Below, piece by piece: positions 4,345-44,587 of a stretch of 64,000 bases of DNA. Source of the stretch: Euzebyales bacterium. GTDB taxonomy: Bacteria > Actinomycetota > Nitriliruptoria > Euzebyales > JAHELV01. The stretch covers positions 17,305 to 81,304 of the forward strand of contig DASUUK010000024.1 in the NCBI GenBank assembly GCA_036374135.1, written 5' to 3'. Position numbers and translations under genes: made by a program. A model generated the notes under the pieces. That model saw nothing but the letters and a program-made list of their open reading frames with translations, was not told where the DNA came from and ran no database searches. How positions within the stretch are numbered: position 1 is the first letter of the stretch; every line of letters begins with the position of its first letter.

Positions 4345-5391
4345 TCAGGCCAGGACGGCCTTGAGCCGGTCGACCGCCTCGATCGGCGTGGGATCCACAC
4401 CACGCGCGAGCGCCGTGTACACGCTGATCAGGTCGACGTGCAGCAGCAGCTCCGCCAGGCGGGCCAGCGGTGGGCCGCCGGTCGACGCCACCTCGGCTGT
4501 CCACGCGAAGTGCCTGTCGGTGATGTCCACCGACGGCGCCACCCGCCGCTTGACCTCGCCGTGCTCGCCGTCGGGGTCACGCACCATGAGCAGCGCGCTA
4601 CGGGGGGTCAGGTGCTCCAGCCAGTGACCGACGATGGCGTTGTGGTCGGCCTCAGGCAGCGTCGCGGCGTAGGCGGGCAGCTTGGCGTTCTCGTTGAGCT
4701 GCGTGACGAGGCGGTGCGCCACGACCGATGCCAACCCCTGCGTGCCCCACGCCACCGCCAGGTCGACCTGCGCCAGCTGCTCCGCGAGGCGCTTGGCCGG
4801 GTTGTCACGCCGCGGGATGTGCCGACCGCAGGCGGCGACCGCGCGGCGCTGACCCGCGATCGCGTCGTCGAGCTGACCGCCCAGCCCGAAGACCCCCAGC
4901 AGCGGCACCAGCAACCAGCCCAGACTGTGGCGGGGCGGGGCACCCGCCGGCACGACTGCGACGGGCCAGCCCTGCTCGTGGGCACGCGCCCCCAGCCGCC
5001 CACCGCTGGTCACGACGGCGATCGGGGCACCGCGGAGCTCGGCCTGGGTGACGGCGTCGAGGGTCTCGGCGGTGTTGCCGGAGTGGGAGACCGCGATGAC
5101 CTGCGTCGACGGACCGACGAAGCACGGCAGGCCGTAGCCCTGGTGAACGACCAGCGGCACCTCCAGCTCGTCGAGCAGCAGCGCCGCCAGCAGGTGCCCC
5201 ACGATCCCCGAGCCGCCCATGCCGACGACACAGACCTGCTCGGCGAGGGTCAGGTCGACGTTCAGCCCGACGCGTCGTGCGTCGTCCCACTGCCACGGCG
5301 CGCCTTCGACATCGGCGAGCGCGTCGCTGAGGTCGACGCGGCCGTAGTGGTCGGGCTCGTCGAGATCGACGCCACCGTCGAGGTCGGTCAT
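4345..5391 (-). CDS. SIS-domain bifunctional phosphoglucose/phosphomannose isomerase-like protein
   Basis: 348 aa with a SIS motif (VCVVGMGGSGIVG, VIAVSHSGNTAETL). It lies in an operon-like series with manB. Confidence 0.75.
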   Translation of the reverse strand: MTDLDGGVDLDEPDHYGRVDLSDALADVEGAPWQWDDARRVGLNVDLTLAEQVCVVGMGGSGIVGHLLAALLLDELEVPLVVHQGYGLPCFVGPSTQVIAVSHSGNTAETLDAVTQAELRGAPIAVVTSGGRLGARAHEQGWPVAVVPAGAPPRHSLGWLLVPLLGVFGLGGQLDDAIAGQRRAVAACGRHIPRRDNPAKRLAEQLAQVDLAVAWGTQGLASVVAHRLVTQLNENAKLPAYAATLPEADHNAIVGHWLEHLTPRSALLMVRDPDGEHGEVKRRVAPSVDITDRHFAWTAEVASTGGPPLARLAELLLHVDLISVYTALARGVDPTPIEAVDRLKAVLA

Positions 5392-28844: not shown

Positions 28845-29414
28845 TCACCCCGCGCGTCGCGACGCGTCCGCCGCGGCCTCGTCGTGTCGACCGTCATCAC
28901 CGCGCCAGTTGTCGTCGGCCGGGGTGTCGTCGTTGCCGTACGCGTTGAGACGGCGCAGCCGCTCGTTGCGCAGCTCACGCCGGATCCGGGCCTGCTCCTG
29001 CCGCCGCCGGTCGTCGGCCGTCTCGGGATGCAGCGGCGGGACCTTGGTCGGTCGACCATCGGCATCCAACGACACCATCAGCAGGTAGGCGCTGGTCGTG
29101 TGCCGGCGCTGCCCTCCGTGCCACGGCTCGGCCTCGACCTTGACGCCGACCTCCAACGAGGTCCGGCCGACATCGTTGACGCGCGCCTGGACGATCAGGA
29201 TGTCACCGACGTCGACCGGCTCGAGGAACGACAGGCCGTCGATCGCCGCCGTGACGCAGACCGTCCCGCAGTGCCGTGCGGCCGCGGTGCCCGCGGCGGA
29301 GTCCACGGCCCGCATGACCACACCGCCGTGGACCTTGCCCAGCGCGTTGGAGTCGGTGATCTCCATGGGTCGGGCGAAGACGACCTCGCTGGCGCGTGGG
29401 GTACCGGCGGTCAC
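28845..29414 (-). CDS. Acyl-CoA thioesterase (hotdog fold)
   Basis: GKVHGGVVMRAVDSAAG...GDILIVQARVNDVGRTSLEV is a typical 4HBT/BFIT pattern. It has a basic/acidic C-terminal tail and a 4-nt overlap with the upstream acyl-CoA dehydrogenase stop. Confidence 0.8.
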   Translation of the reverse strand: MTAGTPRASEVVFARPMEITDSNALGKVHGGVVMRAVDSAAGTAAARHCGTVCVTAAIDGLSFLEPVDVGDILIVQARVNDVGRTSLEVGVKVEAEPWHGGQRRHTTSAYLLMVSLDADGRPTKVPPLHPETADDRRRQEQARIRRELRNERLRRLNAYGNDDTPADDNWRGDDGRHDEAAADASRRAG

Positions 29415-30729: not shown

Positions 30730-31965
30730 GTGCGCCGTCTGCAGCCGTTCAGACACGCCGTGCGACGGATGCTGTCGCACTGGTCGGCGGAGCGTGCCAC
30801 ATTGCGGCAGGGCGTGACGGCGTTGACGATCTGCATCACCGTCACGCTGTTCGCCGGCATCATCCTCGGTGGGATGGAGGGCACGCTGGCCGACACGCCG
30901 GGGCTGCTCGTGCTGGTGCCGTCGGCCATCGGCATGCGCGGAGCGATCTTCGGCGCGCTGGGCGCCCGACTGGGAACCGGCATGTTGATGGGCCAGTTCA
31001 CGACGGATCTGCGACGCGGCAGCTTCCTCGCCGACAACATCGAGGCGGCGCTGCTGGTGTCGCTGTCGACCGCCGCGCTGACCGGTGCGCTGGCGGCCGG
31101 CTCGTCCGCCCTGTTCGGGCTCCAGGCCGTCGACGTGTTCCAACTGGTGATCGTCTCGGCGGTCGGCGCGGTGCTGTCGAGCGCGGTCGTTCTCGCGGTC
31201 ACGCTCGCGCTGGCCCGCACCGCGCAGGCGCGCAGCTGGGACATGGACGCCATCGGAACGCCGGTGATCAGCGCGACCGCCGACATCTCGACGCTGCCGG
31301 CGCTGCTGCTCGGCGTGCTGCTGCTCGGTTCACCGATCGTCCACGTGGTCCTCGGTGGAGCGCTGATCGTGGCGGCGGTCGTCGCCGCCGTCTACGGCGT
31401 GCGCCATCCCAGCCCGCTCGCACGCACGATCGTGCGCGAGAGCACGCCCGTGCTGTGCTACGCGGCGGTGATGGGTGTGCTGGCGGGAACCGTGCTGGAG
31501 ACGCGGTTGGACACGCTGATCGCCGATCCCGCCCTGCTCGTCGCGATCCCGCCGTTCATCGCCTCGTCGGGCGCGCTCGGTGGCATCCTCTCGGCCCGCC
31601 TGTCCTCGCAGCTGCACACCGGTCTGCTGCAGCCGGACCGCGCGCCGAGCGGGAGGGCGATGCTGGAGGGCAGCATGACCGTCCTGCTGGGGCTGATCGG
31701 CTTCACGGTCGTGGGGCTCGCGACGCGGGTGGGCGCCGCGGTGTTCCGCATCAGCTCGCCCTCCACGGCGGCGCTGGTGGGTGCCGTGGACATCGGTGGC
31801 CTGCTGTCGATCGCAGTGGTGTTCGTGGTCGCGTACTACGCCGCCACCGCGTCGTACCGGTTCGGGCTCGACCCCGACACGTCGAGCATCCCGATCGTCA
31901 CATCGAGCATCGACTTTCTCGGCATCCTCTGTCTTGTGATCGGCATCGCAGTGGTAGGACTCTGA
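30730..31965 (+). CDS. MgtE/SLC41-like divalent-cation channel, two transmembrane repeats, no cytosolic N/CBS domain
   Basis: Two copies of the MgtE TM signature are present (PSAIGMRGAIFGALGARLGT and ASSGALGGILSARLSSQLHT, each followed by D..G/T.P.I.). GTG start. The whole protein is hydrophobic. Confidence 0.8.
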   Translation: MRRLQPFRHAVRRMLSHWSAERATLRQGVTALTICITVTLFAGIILGGMEGTLADTPGLLVLVPSAIGMRGAIFGALGARLGTGMLMGQFTTDLRRGSFLADNIEAALLVSLSTAALTGALAAGSSALFGLQAVDVFQLVIVSAVGAVLSSAVVLAVTLALARTAQARSWDMDAIGTPVISATADISTLPALLLGVLLLGSPIVHVVLGGALIVAAVVAAVYGVRHPSPLARTIVRESTPVLCYAAVMGVLAGTVLETRLDTLIADPALLVAIPPFIASSGALGGILSARLSSQLHTGLLQPDRAPSGRAMLEGSMTVLLGLIGFTVVGLATRVGAAVFRISSPSTAALVGAVDIGGLLSIAVVFVVAYYAATASYRFGLDPDTSSIPIVTSSIDFLGILCLVIGIAVVGL

Positions 31966-31970
31966 TACTC

Positions 31971-32006
31971 ATGACCTCAAGTAGCGAAGCGGCAGGTCAC
32001 GACCTG
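31971..32006 (+). repeat. Copy A of a 36-nt element ATGACCTCAAGYAGCGAAGCGGYAGGTCACGACCWG
   Basis: Identical at 33 of 36 positions to 43145-43180. It contains the hairpin TGACCT-N16-AGGTCA, and two of the three differences fall in the loop. It starts 5 nt after the MgtE-like stop codon and opens a 22-codon ORF (31971..32039) ending TAGTG on the next gene start. Confidence 0.8.
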
Positions 32007-32038
32007 ACGTCACGTAGCGCAGCAGTGGGTCACGTGTA

Positions 32039-33241
32039 GTGCGCAACCTCAAGGAGCTGCTGACCGACGCCAAGGACGCGTCGGAACTGATGGTGGACCT
32101 GGCCTACGCCGCGGTCTTCTTCGACGACGACGACCTGGCGCGTGAGGTGATCCACCTCGAGGAGCGAATGGACCAGGCCGTCCGCGAGATGCGCATCGTG
32201 TGCATGCTCGCGAGCCGTTCGCCGGACGACGCCGAGGACATGGCCGCCATCCTCGGCATGGCCAACTCCATGGAGGAGATCGCCGACGCCGCCGAGGACA
32301 TCGCCAGGGTCGTGCTCAAAGACCTCGGCGTGCCCAGCGAGCTGCGCGACGACCTGCGCCACGCCGAGGAGGTGATGGCGCGGGTCAAGCTGCGGGACGG
32401 CAACGAGCTGGCCAACCGCACGCTGGCTGACGCCATGCTGCCCAGCGAGACGGGCATGTGGATCATCGCCCTGCGCCGCGACGTCGATTTCGTCTACGGC
32501 CCGGACGGCGACTTCGTGCTGGCCGACGGCGACGTCCTGATCCTCCAGGGACCACGCGACGGTGTCGACCTGGTCCGCGAGCTCGCCGGCGGCGACGCGT
32601 TCGGCCTACGCCCTCCCGCCGAGCAGGCCCGGCTGTCGAACCTCGACCGCGCGGTCGACCTGCTCGTCGAGCTCAAGAACATCGCCGAGGTCGCGGTCGG
32701 CATGGCCTACTCGGCGATCCTGTTCCGCGACGCGGGTCTGGCCTCCGAGGTGGGCCGGCTCGAGGACCGGTGTGACGACCTGTACCACGACCTGCAGCGC
32801 TGGGTGCTGCGGGCGGCGAGGGATCTGGACGACGACGACATCGATGAGTTGCGCGGACTGATGCAGATCGGGCAGTCCAGCGAGCGCATCGCCGACGCGG
32901 CGCAGGAGATGACACGTGTCGCGGAATCCGACGACGACCCGCACCCGGTCATCGCCGCCGCGCTGGCCGAGGCGGACGAGATCGTCAGCGATGCGATCGT
33001 CAACGAGGGATCGACCGCGGAGGGGCGCAGCCTGCGCGAGCTGACCATCGAGACCGAGACCGGGATGTACGTGCTGGCGATCCACCGCGGAGGACGGTGG
33101 ATCTACCGGCCCCGCGGCTACCGGGCGCTCGAGATGGGCGACCGTCTGCTGGCGACCGGTCCGGAGGAGGGCGTGGAACTGCTGCGGGAGCTCACCGGCG
33201 ATCCGCGACCGGCAGTCACCGAGGATGCCTTCGGCGCCTGA
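32039..33241 (+). CDS. Tandem PhoU-like / TrkA_C (RCK C-terminal) domain protein
   Basis: 400 aa built as 2 x [PhoU-like helical bundle (ASELMVDLAYAAVFF.., IAEVAVGMAYSAILF..) + TrkA_C (..GDVLILQGPRDGV.., ..GDRLLATGPEEGV..)]. GTG start at 32039. Confidence 0.8.
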   Translation: MRNLKELLTDAKDASELMVDLAYAAVFFDDDDLAREVIHLEERMDQAVREMRIVCMLASRSPDDAEDMAAILGMANSMEEIADAAEDIARVVLKDLGVPSELRDDLRHAEEVMARVKLRDGNELANRTLADAMLPSETGMWIIALRRDVDFVYGPDGDFVLADGDVLILQGPRDGVDLVRELAGGDAFGLRPPAEQARLSNLDRAVDLLVELKNIAEVAVGMAYSAILFRDAGLASEVGRLEDRCDDLYHDLQRWVLRAARDLDDDDIDELRGLMQIGQSSERIADAAQEMTRVAESDDDPHPVIAAALAEADEIVSDAIVNEGSTAEGRSLRELTIETETGMYVLAIHRGGRWIYRPRGYRALEMGDRLLATGPEEGVELLRELTGDPRPAVTEDAFGA

Positions 33242-38996: not shown

Positions 38997-41435
38997 TCAC
39001 CGTGCGCCGATCACGACCCAGCCCGCCTTCTCGGGCCCATGGCGCAGCTCACGGTCGCGCGACATGTCCTCGTGGACCCGTACCTGCGCGCGGCGGTCAC
39101 GCAGGTCGCGGTACCGCAACGTGGCGGTGTCCGAGCCCTTGAAGGACTGCATCGCCGACAACAGCACGCCGTCCGGCCGGCTGGCACCGAACCAGATCGT
39201 CCGCCATTGGTGGGTGACCTGCGCACTCGTCCTGCCCGCGCGCAGCCGCTGGCCCGCAAGCCACCCCGAGCCCAGGCTGAAGGCGATGTGGTGCACCGTC
39301 TCGGACCCGTGCAACCGCCCCGACGTGACATCGGACTCCTGACCCTGCAGGCGGACGCTGAAGTCCCCGCGGCGCACGTCGCTGATACGCGTCGTGACCG
39401 GGCGGCCGCTGAACGTGCTCGCCACCGTGGCGAGCACGACGGGGGCGCGGTCGAACGGCGTCGAGAAGCGCCTGCGCCGACGGCCGTCCGCACCGGTCAT
39501 GGCACCCGCCTCGATGGTCATGTTGCCGAGCCTGTGCCTGCCCGGCTCCGCCGCCACGTAGCCGATGGTCTCGAACGTGTGGCTGCCGTCCTGGTAGGGC
39601 CACTCCTCCAGCCTGAGCTGGAAGCCAGTCGTCGTGACGTTGCGGATGCGCGTGTGCACGGGCGCACTGCCGTTGAACGAGGCGTCGCCGACCACCACGA
39701 CGGGTCGGCGCGCGAACGGGCGCTTGAACGTCGCGGTGATCCAGCGTCCGCCCAGGTCGCTGTTGGCGAGCGTCAGGTCGCCGGCCTGGACCGCAGTGGT
39801 GCTGGGTGCGCTGACGGTGTTCAACCGCAGGATCGACGCCTCGGACGGCACACCGTTGCTGTCGATCGCGAACAGCATGTACTGGCCGGGCGGCGCGATC
39901 CGCGCGTTGGGCGGCCCGGAGACCGTCAGGGTGTCGCCGCTCTGCGTGAAGTCGAGTGGCACCCGTCGCTGGTCCATGTCGAAGCTGTGGGTGGTCGATC
40001 CCGAGCGGACGAGGACGACCTGGGAGATCGTGCGGGAGCCGCCGAGGTCGACGGCGAAGCTGCCGCCGTAGCGGACCGGGGTGTGGCTGGTGATCACCGG
40101 GCGGCTCGCGAGCTGACCGGACCCGTCACGGGCGAACAGGTACGGCGGGTGGTAGATCTCCGCGTTGAGGTTGACGACCGGTCCGGGCGGACCGCCGCCG
40201 GCGGTCAGCACGGTGGCGTCGGGCAGGAGGACGGCGCTGGAGTGGTACAGCCGCGCCCGCGCGGCCGCCGCGCCCCGGTGCCACGTGCCGGTGGCCGGAT
40301 CCCACAGCTCGGCCGCGCGGACGGCGTAGGCGAGCCGCTGGGTCTGGCTCGCACCGCCGGTCACGAGCACCTGCCCGTCGGGCAGGACGGTCGCGTCCGC
40401 CCACGAGCGGTAGGACCCCAGCGACGCGGTCGGCGTCACGCGCGGGCTCGCCCCGTTGATGTCGATCACCGACGCCTGGCCCCCCGCCTTCGTGAGCAGG
40501 ATCCTGCCGATGTCGAACATCGCGGCCGGCGTGGTGTTGTTCGTCGTCGACCCCGGGTAGGTCCCCAGCCTCGTCATTGACCCACTGCCGGACGGGTTCA
40601 ACGACCACATGCCCCGGTCACCCTTGGTCACGATGAACACCCGACCGTTCGGTGCCACCCAGCTGCGCGGGTAGAACCACCGACCGCTGCCGTACACGTC
40701 CGACGACGTTGCGCCGGTCAACCGCCGCCAGCCGTTCGTCGGGTGGTAGGCCTCGGGCATGGTCGCCGGGGTGGCGTCCGGCTTGTCGTCGCGACCGCCG
40801 TGGACGAGGACCTCGCCGTTGGGCATCGTCGTGACCGTCGGATACCAACGGGCGCGGGACATCGAGTCCGCGAGACGCGTGACGGTGCGGCTGGCGGGGT
40901 CGAACAGGTTGACGTCGTCGACAGCGTCGTTCTCCGTGCCGCCCGGGAACCCGTACTCCTCGCCCCCGGTCAGCAGCACCTGGCCATTCCACGGCAGCAC
41001 GGTCTGCGCGCTGCAGAACAGGTTGGTGCTCGTCCCGACCGGCAGCGTCGTGTGGCTCGACGCGCCCATGCCCTTCGTCGGGTCCCACACGTCGTACGTG
41101 AAGCCCTTGGAGTTGCGTCCGTTCTCGTCGGTGCCGTACGTCATGACCGTGCCGTCGGGCAGGACGATGCCGTGGATGGCGCTCAACGGCCACTGCACGG
41201 GATCCGTCCAGACGCCATCGATGTGCGCACGCGGATCGCCGGTCACGTCCATCGCACGTGTCAGTGCCGCGCCATCCTCCGCCCCCTCGACGACGGGGCC
41301 CGACGGCCCGTCCTCGTCGACGACGTCGCGGAGCGGCGCCGCGGCGCCGGCGGGAGCCGCAGTCATCACGAGCACCATCGTGACGGTCGCCGCGAGGGCC
41401 GAGCCGACTGCACGTTGACTGCGCACTCTGTGCAC
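38997..41435 (-). CDS. Secreted radical copper oxidase (galactose/glyoxal oxidase, GlxA-like) with three C-terminal lectin-like repeats
   Basis: A Kelch-type propeller carries the oxidase ligand motifs ([43 protein letters not shown]) and a DUF1929-like domain. It is followed by 3 repeats of F..PF...PVV....VT..GF.....W pattern. The start is placed at GTG 41435 after GGGAGA, giving the signal peptide [31 protein letters not shown]. Confidence 0.85.
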
Positions 41436-41649
41436 CGATCTCCCGCCGCAGGAGTGGAACAGGCCGTGGAGTTGTCCGCGTGGGACGGTACCGCGCGGCG
41501 CCGCCACATGGAACACCGACATGGGCACGACGTATCGTTCAGCCCCCACTGTGGGTATGAACCTACGCTCGGGCCGGCGACGCACGTCCCGCGGATCTGA
41601 TCGCACACGTGCGCCTGTCGTACCGTGCGATCATGAGGAGGCGACGGCC

Positions 41650-43140
41650 ATGGCCGAACGACCCATGCAGACCTCCGTGGATCCTGGTTCCACGCGACAC
41701 GGGCAGGAGCGGCTTCACCGCGTTGAGAACTTCATCGACGGGCGGCTGCAGCCCGCTGAAGACGGACCCACTGCGCCGCTCATCGATCCGTCGACCGGTC
41801 TCGAGCTCGCCCGCGCGCCGGTCTCGGGCACCGCTGACGTCGACGCCGCCTGTCGGGCGGCGGCGCGTGCGTTCGACACATGGCGTCGGGTGCCACCAGC
41901 GGAGCGCAGCCGGGCGCTGCTGCGCATCGCCGACGCGTTCGAGGAGCACGCCGAGGCGCTGATCCGCGCGGAGTGCGACAACACGGGCAAGCCGTACCAG
42001 ATGACGCTCGAGGGCGAGCTTCCTGACGCGTGCGACCAGATCCGGTTCTTCGCCGGCGCCGCCCGCGTGCTCGAGGGTCGAGCCGCCGGCGAGTACATGG
42101 CGGGACACACCTCGATGATCCGCCGCGAGCCGGTGGGCGTGTGCGCACAGGTCACGCCGTGGAACTACCCGCTGATGATGGCGGTGTGGAAGTTCGCTCC
42201 CGCCATCGCCGCGGGCAACACGGTCGTGCTCAAGCCCTCGGACACGACGCCGGTCAGCACGGTGATGATGGCGGAGATCATGGCCGAGTTCCTGCCACCC
42301 GGCGTGTTCAACGTCGTGTGCGGGGACCGGGACACGGGGCGGGCCCTGGTGGCCCACGACATCCCCGACATGGTGTCGGTCACCGGGAGCGTGCGTGCGG
42401 GCATGCAGGTCGCAGAGGCCGCCGCCGCCGACCTCAAACGCGTCCACCTCGAGCTGGGCGGCAAGGCGCCCGTCATCGTGTTCGACGACGCCGACCTCGA
42501 CGCTGCGGCCGAGATCATCGCCGGCGCGGCCTACTACAACGCCGGCCAGGACTGCACGGCGGCCACCCGGGTGCTGGCCGCACCCGGCATCCACGACGAC
42601 GTCGTCACCGCACTGGCCGACCAGGCGCGGTCGACGAGGACGGGTGGCCCGTACGAGGACGGTGTCGACTACGGACCGCTCAACAACTCCGAGCAGCTCG
42701 CACGCGTGGCCGGCTTCTTCGAGCGCCGACCGGACCACGCGCAGGTCGTCACCGGCGGGGCGCGGACGGGTGATGGCGGGTTCTTCTGGGCGCCGACCGT
42801 CGTGGCCGACCTGCACCAGGATGATGAGATGATCCAGACGGAGATCTTCGGTCCGGTCATCACCGTCCAGCGCTTCGACGACGAGCAGAAGGCACTGGCC
42901 TGGGGCAACGACGTCGAGTACGGCCTGGCGGCCAGCGTGTGGACCCGTGACCACGGCCGCGCGATGCGCATGGCGGCCGGCCTGGACTTCGGCACCGTGT
43001 GGATCAACACGCACATCCCGGTCGTTGCGGAGATGCCCCACGGTGGCTTCAAGCACACCGGCCACGGCAAGGACCTGTCGATGTACGGGTTCGAGGAGTA
43101 CACGCGGATCAAGCACGTCATGAGCAACATCGAAGGATGA
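41650..43140 (+). CDS. NAD(P)-dependent aldehyde dehydrogenase (aminobutyraldehyde/betaine-aldehyde DH-like)
   Basis: ELGGKAP and GQDCTAATR catalytic motifs. ATG 41650 is preceded by GAGGAGG. The track ORF start (41521) is rejected. Confidence 0.92.
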
Positions 43141-43144
43141 GCGA

Positions 43145-43180
43145 ATGACCTCAAGCAGCGAAGCGGTAGGTCACGACCAG
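43145..43180 (+). repeat. Copy B of the 36-nt ATG-hairpin element
   Basis: 33 of 36 positions match 31971-32006. It starts 4 nt after the aldehyde dehydrogenase stop and forms the first 12 codons (MTSSSEAVGHDQ) of the aminotransferase. Confidence 0.8.
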
Positions 43181-44587
43181 TCGAATAGCGCCCACACGCT
43201 GGCAGACGGACACCTGTGGCTGCACTTCACGCGCACGAACGACTGGATGGGCCCCGAACCATCGATCCCGGTGCTCGACCGGGGCGAGGGGTGCTACGTC
43301 TGGGACGTGGAGGGCCACCGCTACCTCGACGGCCTGTCGGCCCTGTTCTGCGTGCAGGTCGGTTACGGACGTCCCGAGATGGTCGAGGCGGCCGCGCGGC
43401 AGATGCGCAAGCTGCCGTTCGCGACCAACTGGGCGACGGCGCACCAGCCGGCGATCGACCTTGCCGCGCAGCTCGCCGAGCGCTTCCCCGCCGACCTGAA
43501 CCACGCGTTCTTCGTCAACTCCGGATCCGAGGCCGTCGAGTCGGCACTCAAGCTCGCGCGCCAGTACCACGCCGCACGCGGCGACCCGCAGCGGCACAAG
43601 ATCATCAGCCGCCACTACGCGTACCACGGCACCACGCTGGGCGCTCTGGGCGTCACCGGTCTGCAGTCGCTGACGGAGCCGTTCGAGCCGTTGGCACCCG
43701 GCCACATCCACGTCGCGAACACCAACAGCTACCGGCCGCAGACCGACGACCCGGCAGGGGCGATCGAGGAGGCGATCGAGCAGGCTGGCCCCGAGACCGT
43801 GTCGGCTGTCTTCCTGGAGCCCGTGCAGAACGCCGGCGGCTGCTTCCTGCCCCCCGAGGGGTACTTCCAGCGGGTCCGCGACATCTGCGACCGGCACGGC
43901 GTGTTGCTGGTGTCCGACGAGGTGATCTGCGCGTTCGGGCGGCTCGGCACGTGGACCGGTGCCGAGAGGTACGACTACCTGCCCGACATCATCACGTTTG
44001 CCAAGGGCGTCACGTCCGCTTATGCGCCGCTGGGCGGCATGGTGTTCCGCAGCGAGCTCGCGCGCGCGCTCAACAAGGAACCGACCGACATGTTCCTCCA
44101 CGGATCAACGTGGGGCGGGCATCCGGTGGCGTGCGCCGTCGCGAGCGCCAACATCGGCGTGTTCGAGTCCGACGACGTGCTCGGCAACGTGCAACGCAAC
44201 GAGGCCTGGTTCGGCGAACAGCTCCGCGAGCTGTATCGACGTCACGAGATCGTCGGCGACGTGCGCGGCACGGGGTACTTCTGGGCGCTGGAGCTGGTCA
44301 AGGATCGCGACCGCAGGATCGGGTTCGACGACCGGGAGTCCGAGGAGCTGCTGCGGGGCTTCCTGTCGCGTCGCCTGTTGGAGCTCGGGCTCATCTGCCG
44401 TGCCGACGACCGCGACGAACCGGTGATCCAGATCTCGCCACCGCTCGTCGCGGATCGTGCGGTGCTCGGCGAGCTCGTCGACACGCTCGACATCGTGCTG
44501 GGCGAGGCGGTCCTGCGGCTCCACCCGCGCCTCGGGGCACCCGAGCCCGACCGGTCAGCGGGCGGGCCGGGCACCAGCGCGCCCTGA
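43145..44587 (+). CDS. Class-III (omega) aminotransferase
   Basis: 480 aa. HLWLHFT, NSGSEAVESALKLAR, DEVICAFGRLG and the PLP lysine in ITFAKGVTSAYAPLGG. GAAGGA lies 8 nt upstream of the ATG. Confidence 0.9.
   Translation: MTSSSEAVGHDQSNSAHTLADGHLWLHFTRTNDWMGPEPSIPVLDRGEGCYVWDVEGHRYLDGLSALFCVQVGYGRPEMVEAAARQMRKLPFATNWATAHQPAIDLAAQLAERFPADLNHAFFVNSGSEAVESALKLARQYHAARGDPQRHKIISRHYAYHGTTLGALGVTGLQSLTEPFEPLAPGHIHVANTNSYRPQTDDPAGAIEEAIEQAGPETVSAVFLEPVQNAGGCFLPPEGYFQRVRDICDRHGVLLVSDEVICAFGRLGTWTGAERYDYLPDIITFAKGVTSAYAPLGGMVFRSELARALNKEPTDMFLHGSTWGGHPVACAVASANIGVFESDDVLGNVQRNEAWFGEQLRELYRRHEIVGDVRGTGYFWALELVKDRDRRIGFDDRESEELLRGFLSRRLLELGLICRADDRDEPVIQISPPLVADRAVLGELVDTLDIVLGEAVLRLHPRLGAPEPDRSAGGPGTSAP

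Follow-up and report, generated by a model that had tools for sequence, protein, structure and literature searches.

We report that two near-identical elements in a 64,000-nt stretch of DNA from a Euzebyales bacterium (Nitriliruptoria, Actinomycetota; GenBank assembly GCA_036374135.1, contig DASUUK010000024.1, positions 17,305 to 81,304 of the forward strand; hereafter the window) belong to a family of short repeats that is dispersed over the genomes of this class. One element, copy A, lies at the junction of an MgtE-domain gene and a PhoU/TrkA_C gene (locus A); the other, copy B, lies at the junction of an aldehyde dehydrogenase gene and a class-III aminotransferase gene (locus B). The family is a dispersed, sense-oriented, junction-located minisatellite of variable copy number, with a frame-locked mini-open reading frame (mini-ORF) and a covarying hairpin. 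Judging from the comparative sequence data, we consider it likely (probability about 0.78) that copies A and B are members of a dispersed repeat family of the same kind as the interspersed repetitive units of mycobacteria (MIRUs), with a mini-ORF that would keep the flanking genes translationally coupled.

Arrays of a 33-nt unit at two gene junctions

The original prediction drew attention to the similarity of positions 31971-32006 and 43145-43180. We recovered this match: the two segments are identical at 33 of 36 positions, and no match with three or fewer mismatches arose in 100 dinucleotide shuffles of the window. As had been described, two of the substitutions (31982 and 31993) fall in the loop of a candidate hairpin and the third (32005) falls 3' of its stem, and the ATG of each copy follows closely on the stop codon of the upstream gene, with a gap of 5 nt in copy A and 4 nt in copy B (Table 1). 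The 22-codon ORF proposed for copy A is present, with a TAG that overlaps the GTG of the next gene, and its GC content at third codon positions (GC3) is indeed low (12/22, or 0.55 by our own count, versus 0.93-0.95 in the flanking genes). We also found the three GTCACG motifs, TGACGTCA and CACGTG that had been noted in the 73-nt spacer; all of them are pieces of two tandem units.

This tandem structure had been overlooked. The 73-nt spacer consists of two 33-nt units, the second of them decayed, and Tandem Repeats Finder (TRF) reports 31972-32034 as a repeat of period 33 with 1.9 copies and 80% matches. The first unit, A1, differs from the 27-nt core of the family by one mismatch, and a repeat search of the window (family D10) gives 64% identity for the second, A2, at 33-nt spacing. 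The GTG at 32039 is the correct start of the PhoU/TrkA_C gene, since homologues among the matches listed are ~400 amino acids (aa) long and cover 97-100% of the query. An exact-protein look-up of the PhoU/TrkA_C product returned no match, probably since the GTG start is translated as V. The stop of the mini-ORF and this start overlap by 1 nt (TAGTG); an overlap of the form xTGA is impossible at this junction because the second codon of the PhoU gene, by direct reading, is CGC. Copy A is a pair of units, the second decayed, that bridges the MgtE-domain gene to the PhoU/TrkA_C gene by 22 codons.

Copy B has a different relationship to its downstream gene, which had also gone unrecognised: it constitutes the first 12 codons of the aminotransferase ORF, with no spacer. 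The aminotransferase of the window begins MTSSSEAVGHDQSNSAHTLADGHLW, and its closest repeat-free homologues (83-87% identity) begin MTAHNTLADGHLW... or MTNALADGHLW... and similar; those starting MTAHNTLADGHLW... begin 12 residues later than the window protein. From this comparison of N-termini, the repeat corresponds exactly to the residues that the repeat-free relatives lack, and the 12 extra codons are absent from all repeat-free relatives examined. Unit B1 is followed by a partial, degenerate unit, after which the ancestral codons of the aminotransferase (GCC CAC ACG CTG ...) continue in the same frame. We compared locus B with its counterparts in other assemblies, which we refer to by locus labels; L003 to L006 represent one related species from JGI metagenomes, and L007 is a piece of the metagenome-assembled genome (MAG) JAHWKT01. 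In L003 and L004, the array at locus B ends CAGACCTCGAGCAAC / GCCCACACG. In L001 and L002, the dehydrogenase and aminotransferase genes are separated by a unit-free, non-coding spacer of 58-102 nt with a GC hairpin. These alignments indicate that copy B is one unit plus a stub, turned into a 12-residue N-terminal extension of the aminotransferase. An alternative origin of copy B, evolution in place from the ancestral spacer, was first prompted by GCAGCGACAGCGATAGG in the L001 spacer. It was dropped, as L003 and L004 show the partial unit joined to the gene and the L002 spacer is without such similarity.

The host genome was checked for units over the 64 kb of the window, which holds two loci; a search with nhmmer found no units beyond loci A and B in this stretch. 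For this purpose we used a profile of family units, because a fuzzy pattern scan had overlooked known units.

A dispersed family in Nitriliruptoria

We scanned one genome per species for the pattern TCNAGNAGCGNAGCGGNNGGTCAC, which has 19 fixed bases and for which about 4 chance hits are expected by our own arithmetic. The scan identified 25 loci, ~18 of which are in Nitriliruptoria-type MAGs; with the strict 19-base pattern there are 8 separate loci in MAG JAHWKT01 and 3 in JAHELV01. A scan of JGI metagenomes added 50 further loci, and viral contigs scanned with the unit pattern gave no hits. Once chance hits had been removed and orthologues merged, the genome and metagenome scans together yielded 57 distinct loci, nearly all on metagenome contigs or in assemblies of Nitriliruptoria type. 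Apart from those contigs, the hosts are MAGs of Euzebyales and Nitriliruptorales (Nitriliruptoria, Actinomycetota), and a protein identical to the aminotransferase of the window is known from a Euzebyales MAG. The consensus of the family is ATGACCTCAAGTAGCG[A/C]AGCGGTAGGTCAC followed by a linker of ~5 nt, which places successive ATGAs 35 bp apart; arrays have periods of 33, 35, 36 or 38 nt.

Units occur in unrelated operons. They are found between the genes of a histidine kinase and its response regulator, between rpsL and rpsG (encoding S12 and S7), upstream of rplO (L15) and in nuo. Further contexts include prephenate dehydratase (pheA), an oligopeptide ABC ATPase, a UbiA prenyltransferase and a radical-SAM gene. 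We found no literature on such repeats in Nitriliruptoria, nor on MIRU-like repeats. The family reads as a previously undescribed repeat family of Nitriliruptoria, and we regard it as MIRU-like, a new family of that kind and not MIRU itself.

L014 (680-742) is on a 186-kb contig labelled alphaproteobacterial (MAG JAFKFG010000006.1; 61-67% GC), where two units, the first of them identical to the actinobacterial consensus over 27 nt, lie upstream of the start of a minus-strand gene and make inter-unit palindromes (GGTCAC-aaaa-GTGACC). These units could reflect horizontal transfer, misbinning or a wider family. At L022 (minus strand, JAHWKT010000018.1), a radical-SAM (RlmN-like) gene has at least five units in frame just ahead of its CxxxCxxC motif; either the units are inserted in frame within the gene, or the gene is split.

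Reading-frame geometry at gene junctions

Among those of the 57 distinct loci with flanks that could be scored, both flanking genes are encoded on the strand of the unit at 36 loci and on the opposite strand at none; at ~10 loci the flanks are mixed or non-coding. Strand calls by GC3 alone were ambiguous in this high-GC DNA, and GC1 minus GC2 was added to the score. At 18 of the 36 sense loci, the TGA of the upstream gene overlaps the ATG of the unit (ATGA), and several others have the TAG of the unit itself as the stop of the upstream gene. At the downstream end, the last unit is open in frame 1 up to a TGA shared with the start of the next gene (ATGA, -4 spacing) at 20/36 loci; this ORF is fused in frame to the downstream gene at 6/36, and overlaps it at -1 at a single locus, locus A of the window.

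Twenty-nine distinct ATG-units extend to an xTGA start, and 28 of them measure exactly 35 nt. The period from ATG to ATG is 33 or 36 nt where units are read through and 35 nt where stop and start overlap; periods of 34 and 37 nt never occur (18/18). Each unit supplies a reading frame of 11 or 12 codons. Read off directly, the consensus is free of stops in frame 1 only; they occur in frame 2 (TGA at 2, TAG at 23, TGA at 32) and in frame 3 (TAG at 12). In one variant the loop is longer by a base and the period is 38 nt, which keeps the -4 overlap and alters the peptide. The mini-ORF peptides have no Pfam match. Taken together, the frame geometry, the low GC3 and the peptide-changing variant suggest that what is preserved is the geometry of the reading frame, not the peptide. 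The original prediction holds up in part: of its options, these comparative data favour the intercistronic translational-coupling element, in that the mini-ORF is locked to the flanking stop and start.

The same observations bear on readings in which the product or the sequence of the unit is itself the target of selection. A functional small protein or leader peptide (MTSSSEAVGH...) would fit the presence of an ORF at most loci, and an operator for a DNA-binding protein (TGACCT-N16-AGGTCA) would fit the arms, which form an inverted repeat. However, 1-nt insertion variants shift the frame of the peptide and keep the stop/start geometry, the same nucleotides are read in another frame in L007, and neither the low GC3 nor the missing Pfam match is what a functional peptide would lead one to expect. 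As for an operator, the units are found within operons instead of at promoters, keep to one strand and vary in tandem number, and their arms covary, with no single recognition sequence kept. We regard a functional peptide or operator as extremely unlikely. Similarly, a shared target of a small RNA or protein, which had been put forward for copies A and B, is unsupported for units that sit in unrelated operons, are strictly sense and frame-constrained, and expand in tandem.

Copy-number variation, filled sites and empty sites

The related species L003 has a PhoU protein 97% identical to that of the window, and DNA that is 84-90% identical. Its locus A has four units, with a spacer of 139 nt that exceeds the 73 nt of the window by 2 x 33, and its bridging ORF of 44 codons ends on TAGTG as in the window. 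At locus B there are four units in L003 (514-aa protein), three in L004 (503 aa) and one in the window (480 aa). L003 and L004 are 99.98% identical over 12.8 kb, and the difference between them is exactly one 33-nt unit; hence, the array is a variable-number tandem repeat (VNTR) within one population. Further orthologous loci have unit counts of 6/4/2, 4/2 and 3/4. Since arrays break short-read assemblies, the unit counts in MAGs are lower bounds. At L026 (minus strand, ~4415-4560 in locus coordinates), a run of Ns marks an assembly gap inside an array upstream of rplO.

Filled and empty versions of the same site were found for two junctions, locus B and the junction of the acyl-CoA dehydrogenase (ACAD) and 4HBT thioesterase genes. 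The latter is a simple stop/start overlap in the window (Table 1) and is filled in L003 (7189-7300) by ~2.5 units of the 38-nt variant, GTGCCTCGAGTAGCGTCAGCGGTAGGCACACATCATGA. ATGA flanks units of the family; the genomes compared are too diverged for exact insertion boundaries.

In two more distant relatives, L007 and L008 (~81-83% nucleotide identity), the spacer between the MgtE-domain and PhoU genes is occupied by a long form of the element, in which a unit-like 5' part and a unit 3' part enclose a 45-nt insert with a GC hairpin, GGCCGTGAGGAGCGCGGCG(T/C)CAGCCGCG. This form, ~85-100 bp, is found at L007 4020-4105, L008 9900-10003 and L024 (minus strand, ~1575-1670). One genome carries it at two or more loci, among them L007 and L024, which share a core that is 96% identical. 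The long form at locus A in L007 and L008 indicates long-standing occupation of this locus by a member of the family; in the lineage of the window and L003, the short tandem form takes its place. The bridging ORF at locus A of L008 is 32 codons long, and L007 reads the same nucleotides in another frame, which once more shows conservation of the nucleotides and not of the peptide.

The original prediction had also allowed that the two copies are the scar of a local duplication. In this reading copy A would derive from the 5' end of the aminotransferase gene, or that end from copy A, with no wider family. In its favour, the window has just two loci, 11 kb apart, and copy B is coding sequence. 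It does not survive comparison with other genomes: the same unit is present at 57 distinct loci in related genomes and metagenomes, relatives carry the element at locus A, and the 12 codons of copy B are missing from the repeat-free homologues examined. Descent of copy A from the aminotransferase N-terminus in particular was ruled out, as locus A is filled by the long form in lineages whose locus B is empty. We give a duplication scar next to no credence.

A covarying hairpin

The original prediction folded copy A as TGACCT/AGGTCA and pointed to an alignment of all copies as the way to examine the stem. Such an alignment (A1, 43 distinct units), compared with 500 shuffles of the pairing partners and with controls slid by 1-3 columns, bears out the hairpin. 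The stem is paired in 91.3% of cells, versus 85.3% with shuffled partners and 23-47% with slid partners. Changes on both sides of a pair were found in 15 cells versus 2.6 expected, a number reached in 0/500 shuffles. Pair 4-28 occurs as AU (27), UA (6), CG (2) and GC (2), so that all four Watson-Crick types are represented at one position of the stem. Lineage-specific stems include TGTCCT/AGGACA (a Euzebyaceae MAG), TGCCCT/AGGGCA (L032) and GTGCCT/AGGCAC (locus C of L003). The loop of unit A1 holds the mini-hairpin GCGAAGC at 31984-31990; the general form of this motif is GCG-N-AGC, in which the G and A are kept and N is any of the four bases, or GCG-NN-AGC. What is conserved with compensatory changes is a stem of 5-6 bp (GACCT/AGGTC) and a C(GNA)G mini-hairpin. 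Hairpins of the d(GCGAAGC) type are unusually stable in DNA.

As a prediction of minimum free energy (MFE), the proposed fold stood only in part: it is the MFE structure of the isolated unit (-8.1 kcal/mol, RNA) but not that of copy A in longer context. G.U (G.T) and A.C mismatches number 3 versus 2, which does not separate an RNA from a DNA hairpin, and the Rfam comparison gave a match at chance level only (E = 5.5; 10 bits versus a gathering score of 53.5). We take the stem to be real on the strength of its covariation, not of its stability, and it may act as RNA, sequestering the ATG, or as DNA.

The hairpin invites two explanations in which structure comes first. In one, the unit is a REP-like element (REP, repetitive extragenic palindrome), a hairpin in single-stranded DNA (ssDNA) that is copied by a putative HUH/Y1 (RAYT-like) transposase, and the frame architecture is a later selection filter. 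This would agree with the unit size of 35 bp, the covarying stem, the mini-hairpin that keeps its G and A around a middle base of A, C, G or T (or as GNNA), the filled and empty sites, the ATGA flanking the units, and the equal numbers of G.T and A.C mismatches, which give no sign of RNA-specific pairing. REPs, however, have neither a reading-frame nor a sense-strand constraint, and the Nitriliruptoria family has both; at most dozens of copies are present per genome, not hundreds. Moreover, such copying accounts for spread, and is compatible with coupling as the explanation of persistence. We consider a REP-like element improbable as an account of the family.

In the other, the hairpin or array is a regulatory RNA within the polycistronic mRNA, a signal for processing, stability or attenuation of translation that would set how much upstream relative to downstream protein is made, with copy number as a tuning knob. 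Units are sense-only and intercistronic, the stem takes in the U and G of AUG and covaries, and copy number varies within a population, all as one would expect of such a signal. On the other hand, the stems are just 5-6 bp, folding z-scores are unremarkable, and there is no Rfam match; the unit occurs in unrelated operons and is also tolerated as a protein-coding N-terminal extension, and a purely structural signal would not need strict frame rules. A regulatory RNA seems to us highly unlikely.

A model for insertion without loss of coupling

We propose that the family persists at gene junctions through translational coupling. A ribosome that terminates on the upstream gene would re-initiate on the mini-ORF and then on the downstream gene, and insertion of a unit would thereby be nearly neutral for expression of the operon. 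Near-neutral insertion would explain why only copies of this sort have persisted. The peptide of the unit would be a by-product without function. Array length would shift by replication slippage or unequal recombination, and new loci would arise by some copy mechanism, which might be transposition in trans or microhomology at ATGA(C).

Several points weigh against this model. Translation of the mini-ORF and its coupling are predictions from the architecture of the loci. Copy A itself has a 5-nt upstream gap and a downstream overlap of -1 instead of -4, and 7/36 sense loci are outside the simple coupling pattern. At L029 (minus strand, oriented 5190-5345), a five-unit array between rpsL and rpsG is made of CTGACC units without ATG; it opens with the TGA stop of rpsL itself, and a Shine-Dalgarno spacer of the ordinary kind comes after it. 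Apparently untranslated, the array is an exception to the coupling architecture. A few arrays are outside operons: L021 adjoins a tRNA gene and L020 lies between convergent genes. Fold energies in contexts of 39-145 nt, as RNA and as DNA, are no better than those of shuffles (z = +1.9 to -0.7). The stem variants are lineage-specific, and units in one genome are kin and homogenised; hence, perhaps 4-5 independent events underlie the covariation. Apart from ATGA, which may itself belong to the element, the sites showed no clean target-site duplication. Lastly, scans with a pattern of 19 fixed bases skew the sample to well-preserved units.

A bolder proposal is that the 35-bp element is actively mobile and targets ATGA overlaps by means of a trans-acting enzyme that copies it after recognising the covarying hairpin and the C(GNA)G motif on ssDNA, with copy number serving as a heritable coupling dial. 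One open frame, with stops in the other two, would make the element invisible to operon expression. If true, no mobile insertion known to be neutral for translation would be smaller, and the movement of MIRU-type repeats would gain a tractable model. We think an actively mobile element of this type doubtful, and offer it as speculation.

Comparison with MIRUs and other short repeats

MIRUs are described as inserting at start codons, where they supply a coupled ORF spaced at -4 (PMC12548453). They are units of 40-100 bp, present at ~40-50 loci, with ORFs that overlap the neighbouring genes, and are characterised by tetranucleotide direct repeats at filled sites, by empty sites, and by imperfect terminal inverted repeats (PMC3184786). 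The Nitriliruptoria family is like them in being made of small interspersed intergenic operon repeats, often in variable-number tandem arrays, and in having a small ORF whose ends overlap the neighbouring stop and start at -4 spacing. Filled and empty sites are found for it as well, and the ATGA that flanks its units may correspond to the terminal tetranucleotide direct repeat of MIRUs; its terminal inverted repeats are likewise imperfect. A further likeness is that locus L017/L030 separates a response regulator gene from that of its histidine kinase. The founding MIRU is reportedly between senX3 and regX3, and MIRUs are said, in the account of Supply et al. from 1997, to be oriented like the flanking genes. 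MIRUs also fall into length classes; the long form of the Nitriliruptoria repeat, with its internal GC hairpin, is reminiscent of these, and kinship to them is not implied. The comparison is one of architecture, as given in published descriptions.

There are also clear differences from MIRUs. The Nitriliruptoria unit, at 33-38 bp, is shorter than the ~40-100 bp given for MIRUs (PMC3184786). Its hosts belong to another class of Actinomycetota, known here from MAGs and metagenomes, and its hairpin clearly covaries and has a GNA mini-hairpin.

Like REPs and their clustered arrangements (BIMEs), the units are hairpin-forming dispersed repeats of ~35 bp that often follow stops inside operons and are sometimes clustered. 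REPs are untranslated, obey no frame or strand rule, number hundreds per genome and form inverted pairs (REPINs). The Nitriliruptoria units are, in contrast, direct tandem repeats with an ORF; a REP/RAYT element would have a hairpin free of coding or strand constraint, whereas here the hairpin is present and both strand and frame constraints are strong.

Rickettsia palindromic elements (RPEs) are 100-150 bp long and mostly inside genes (PMC3184786). The Nitriliruptoria family resembles RPEs in that its in-frame addition to coding sequence is tolerated, as in copy B, L020, L024, L027 and possibly the radical-SAM interior of L022; it differs from them in that in-frame fusion is N-terminal and confined to a minority of loci (6/36). 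Finally, translationally coupled short upstream ORFs have been described as agents of 'ribosome delivery' (PMC12548453). The likeness is a short ORF with a stop that overlaps the start of the next gene, and the difference is that the Nitriliruptoria ORF comes from a repeated element of variable copy number, not from a locus-specific leader.

The features that make the family significant are its occurrence in a deep-branching actinobacterial class, the 35-bp unit, the near-invariant geometry from ATGA to ATGA with stops in both of the other frames, and the covarying hairpin. To our knowledge, MIRU-type repeats are the only well-known bacterial repeats that put a translationally coupled mini-ORF at gene starts, and we know of no study that has settled how they move and are tolerated. 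A second, apparently independent family would show that the MIRU design is no mycobacterial oddity, and one so small would be simple to dissect by mutation. The arrays also have practical consequences: they yield variable N-terminal extensions and small ORFs that annotation pipelines are liable to miscall, and as VNTR markers they could help to track strains within populations of Nitriliruptoria. The family is relevant to bacterial repeats, translational coupling and genome annotation.

Features of the window

Table 1. Coordinates in the window of the repeat units, the flanking genes and an empty site
Feature	Position	Strand	Basis
Empty site between the acyl-CoA dehydrogenase and 4HBT thioesterase genes, whose stop and start overlap in GTGA	29411..29414	-	window versus L003 7189-7300
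TGA stop of upstream MgtE-domain gene (30730-31965)	31963..31965	+	Pfam MgtE E = 2e-23; frame and GC3
Unit A1, 33 nt, starts with ATG, ATGACCTCAAGTAGCGAAGCGGCAGGTCACGAC	31971..32003	+	nhmmer E = 5e-10, family-unit profile
Hairpin of unit A1: arms TGACCT (31972-31977) and AGGTCA (31994-31999), 16-nt loop	31972..31999	+	fold and covariation
Unit A2, degenerate second tandem unit, CTGACGTCACGTAGCGCAGCAGTGGGTCACGTG	32004..32036	+	nhmmer E = 1.4e-3; TRF period 33
22-codon bridging mini-ORF MTSSSEAAGHDLTSRSAAVGHV, TAG stop 32037-32039	31971..32039	+	reading-frame analysis
PhoU/TrkA_C gene, GTG start 32039-32041	32039..33241	+	Pfam TrkA_C, PhoU
TGA stop of upstream aldehyde dehydrogenase gene (41521-43140)	43138..43140	+	Pfam Aldedh E = 6e-158
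Unit B1, 33 nt, its ATG being the aminotransferase start, ATGACCTCAAGCAGCGAAGCGGTAGGTCACGAC	43145..43177	+	nhmmer E = 1.4e-10
Partial, degenerate 5' piece of a second unit, CAGTCGAATAGC	43178..43189	+	inference from alignment with L003/L004
Class-III aminotransferase ORF, 480 aa, with unit-encoded N-terminal extension	43145..44587	+	Pfam Aminotran_3, match from residue 43

The neighbourhood of locus B shows two further peculiarities. The aldehyde dehydrogenase ORF, as delimited in Table 1, encodes 539 aa versus 477-502 aa in relatives, with a Pfam match from residue 83, and the true start of the gene is probably downstream of 41521. A minus-strand ORF of 869 aa (38997-41606) spans ~2.5 kb (39026-41523) that have no counterpart in L003, and L007 has a glyoxal-oxidase-like gene in the place of this ORF, a presence/absence difference near the repeat.

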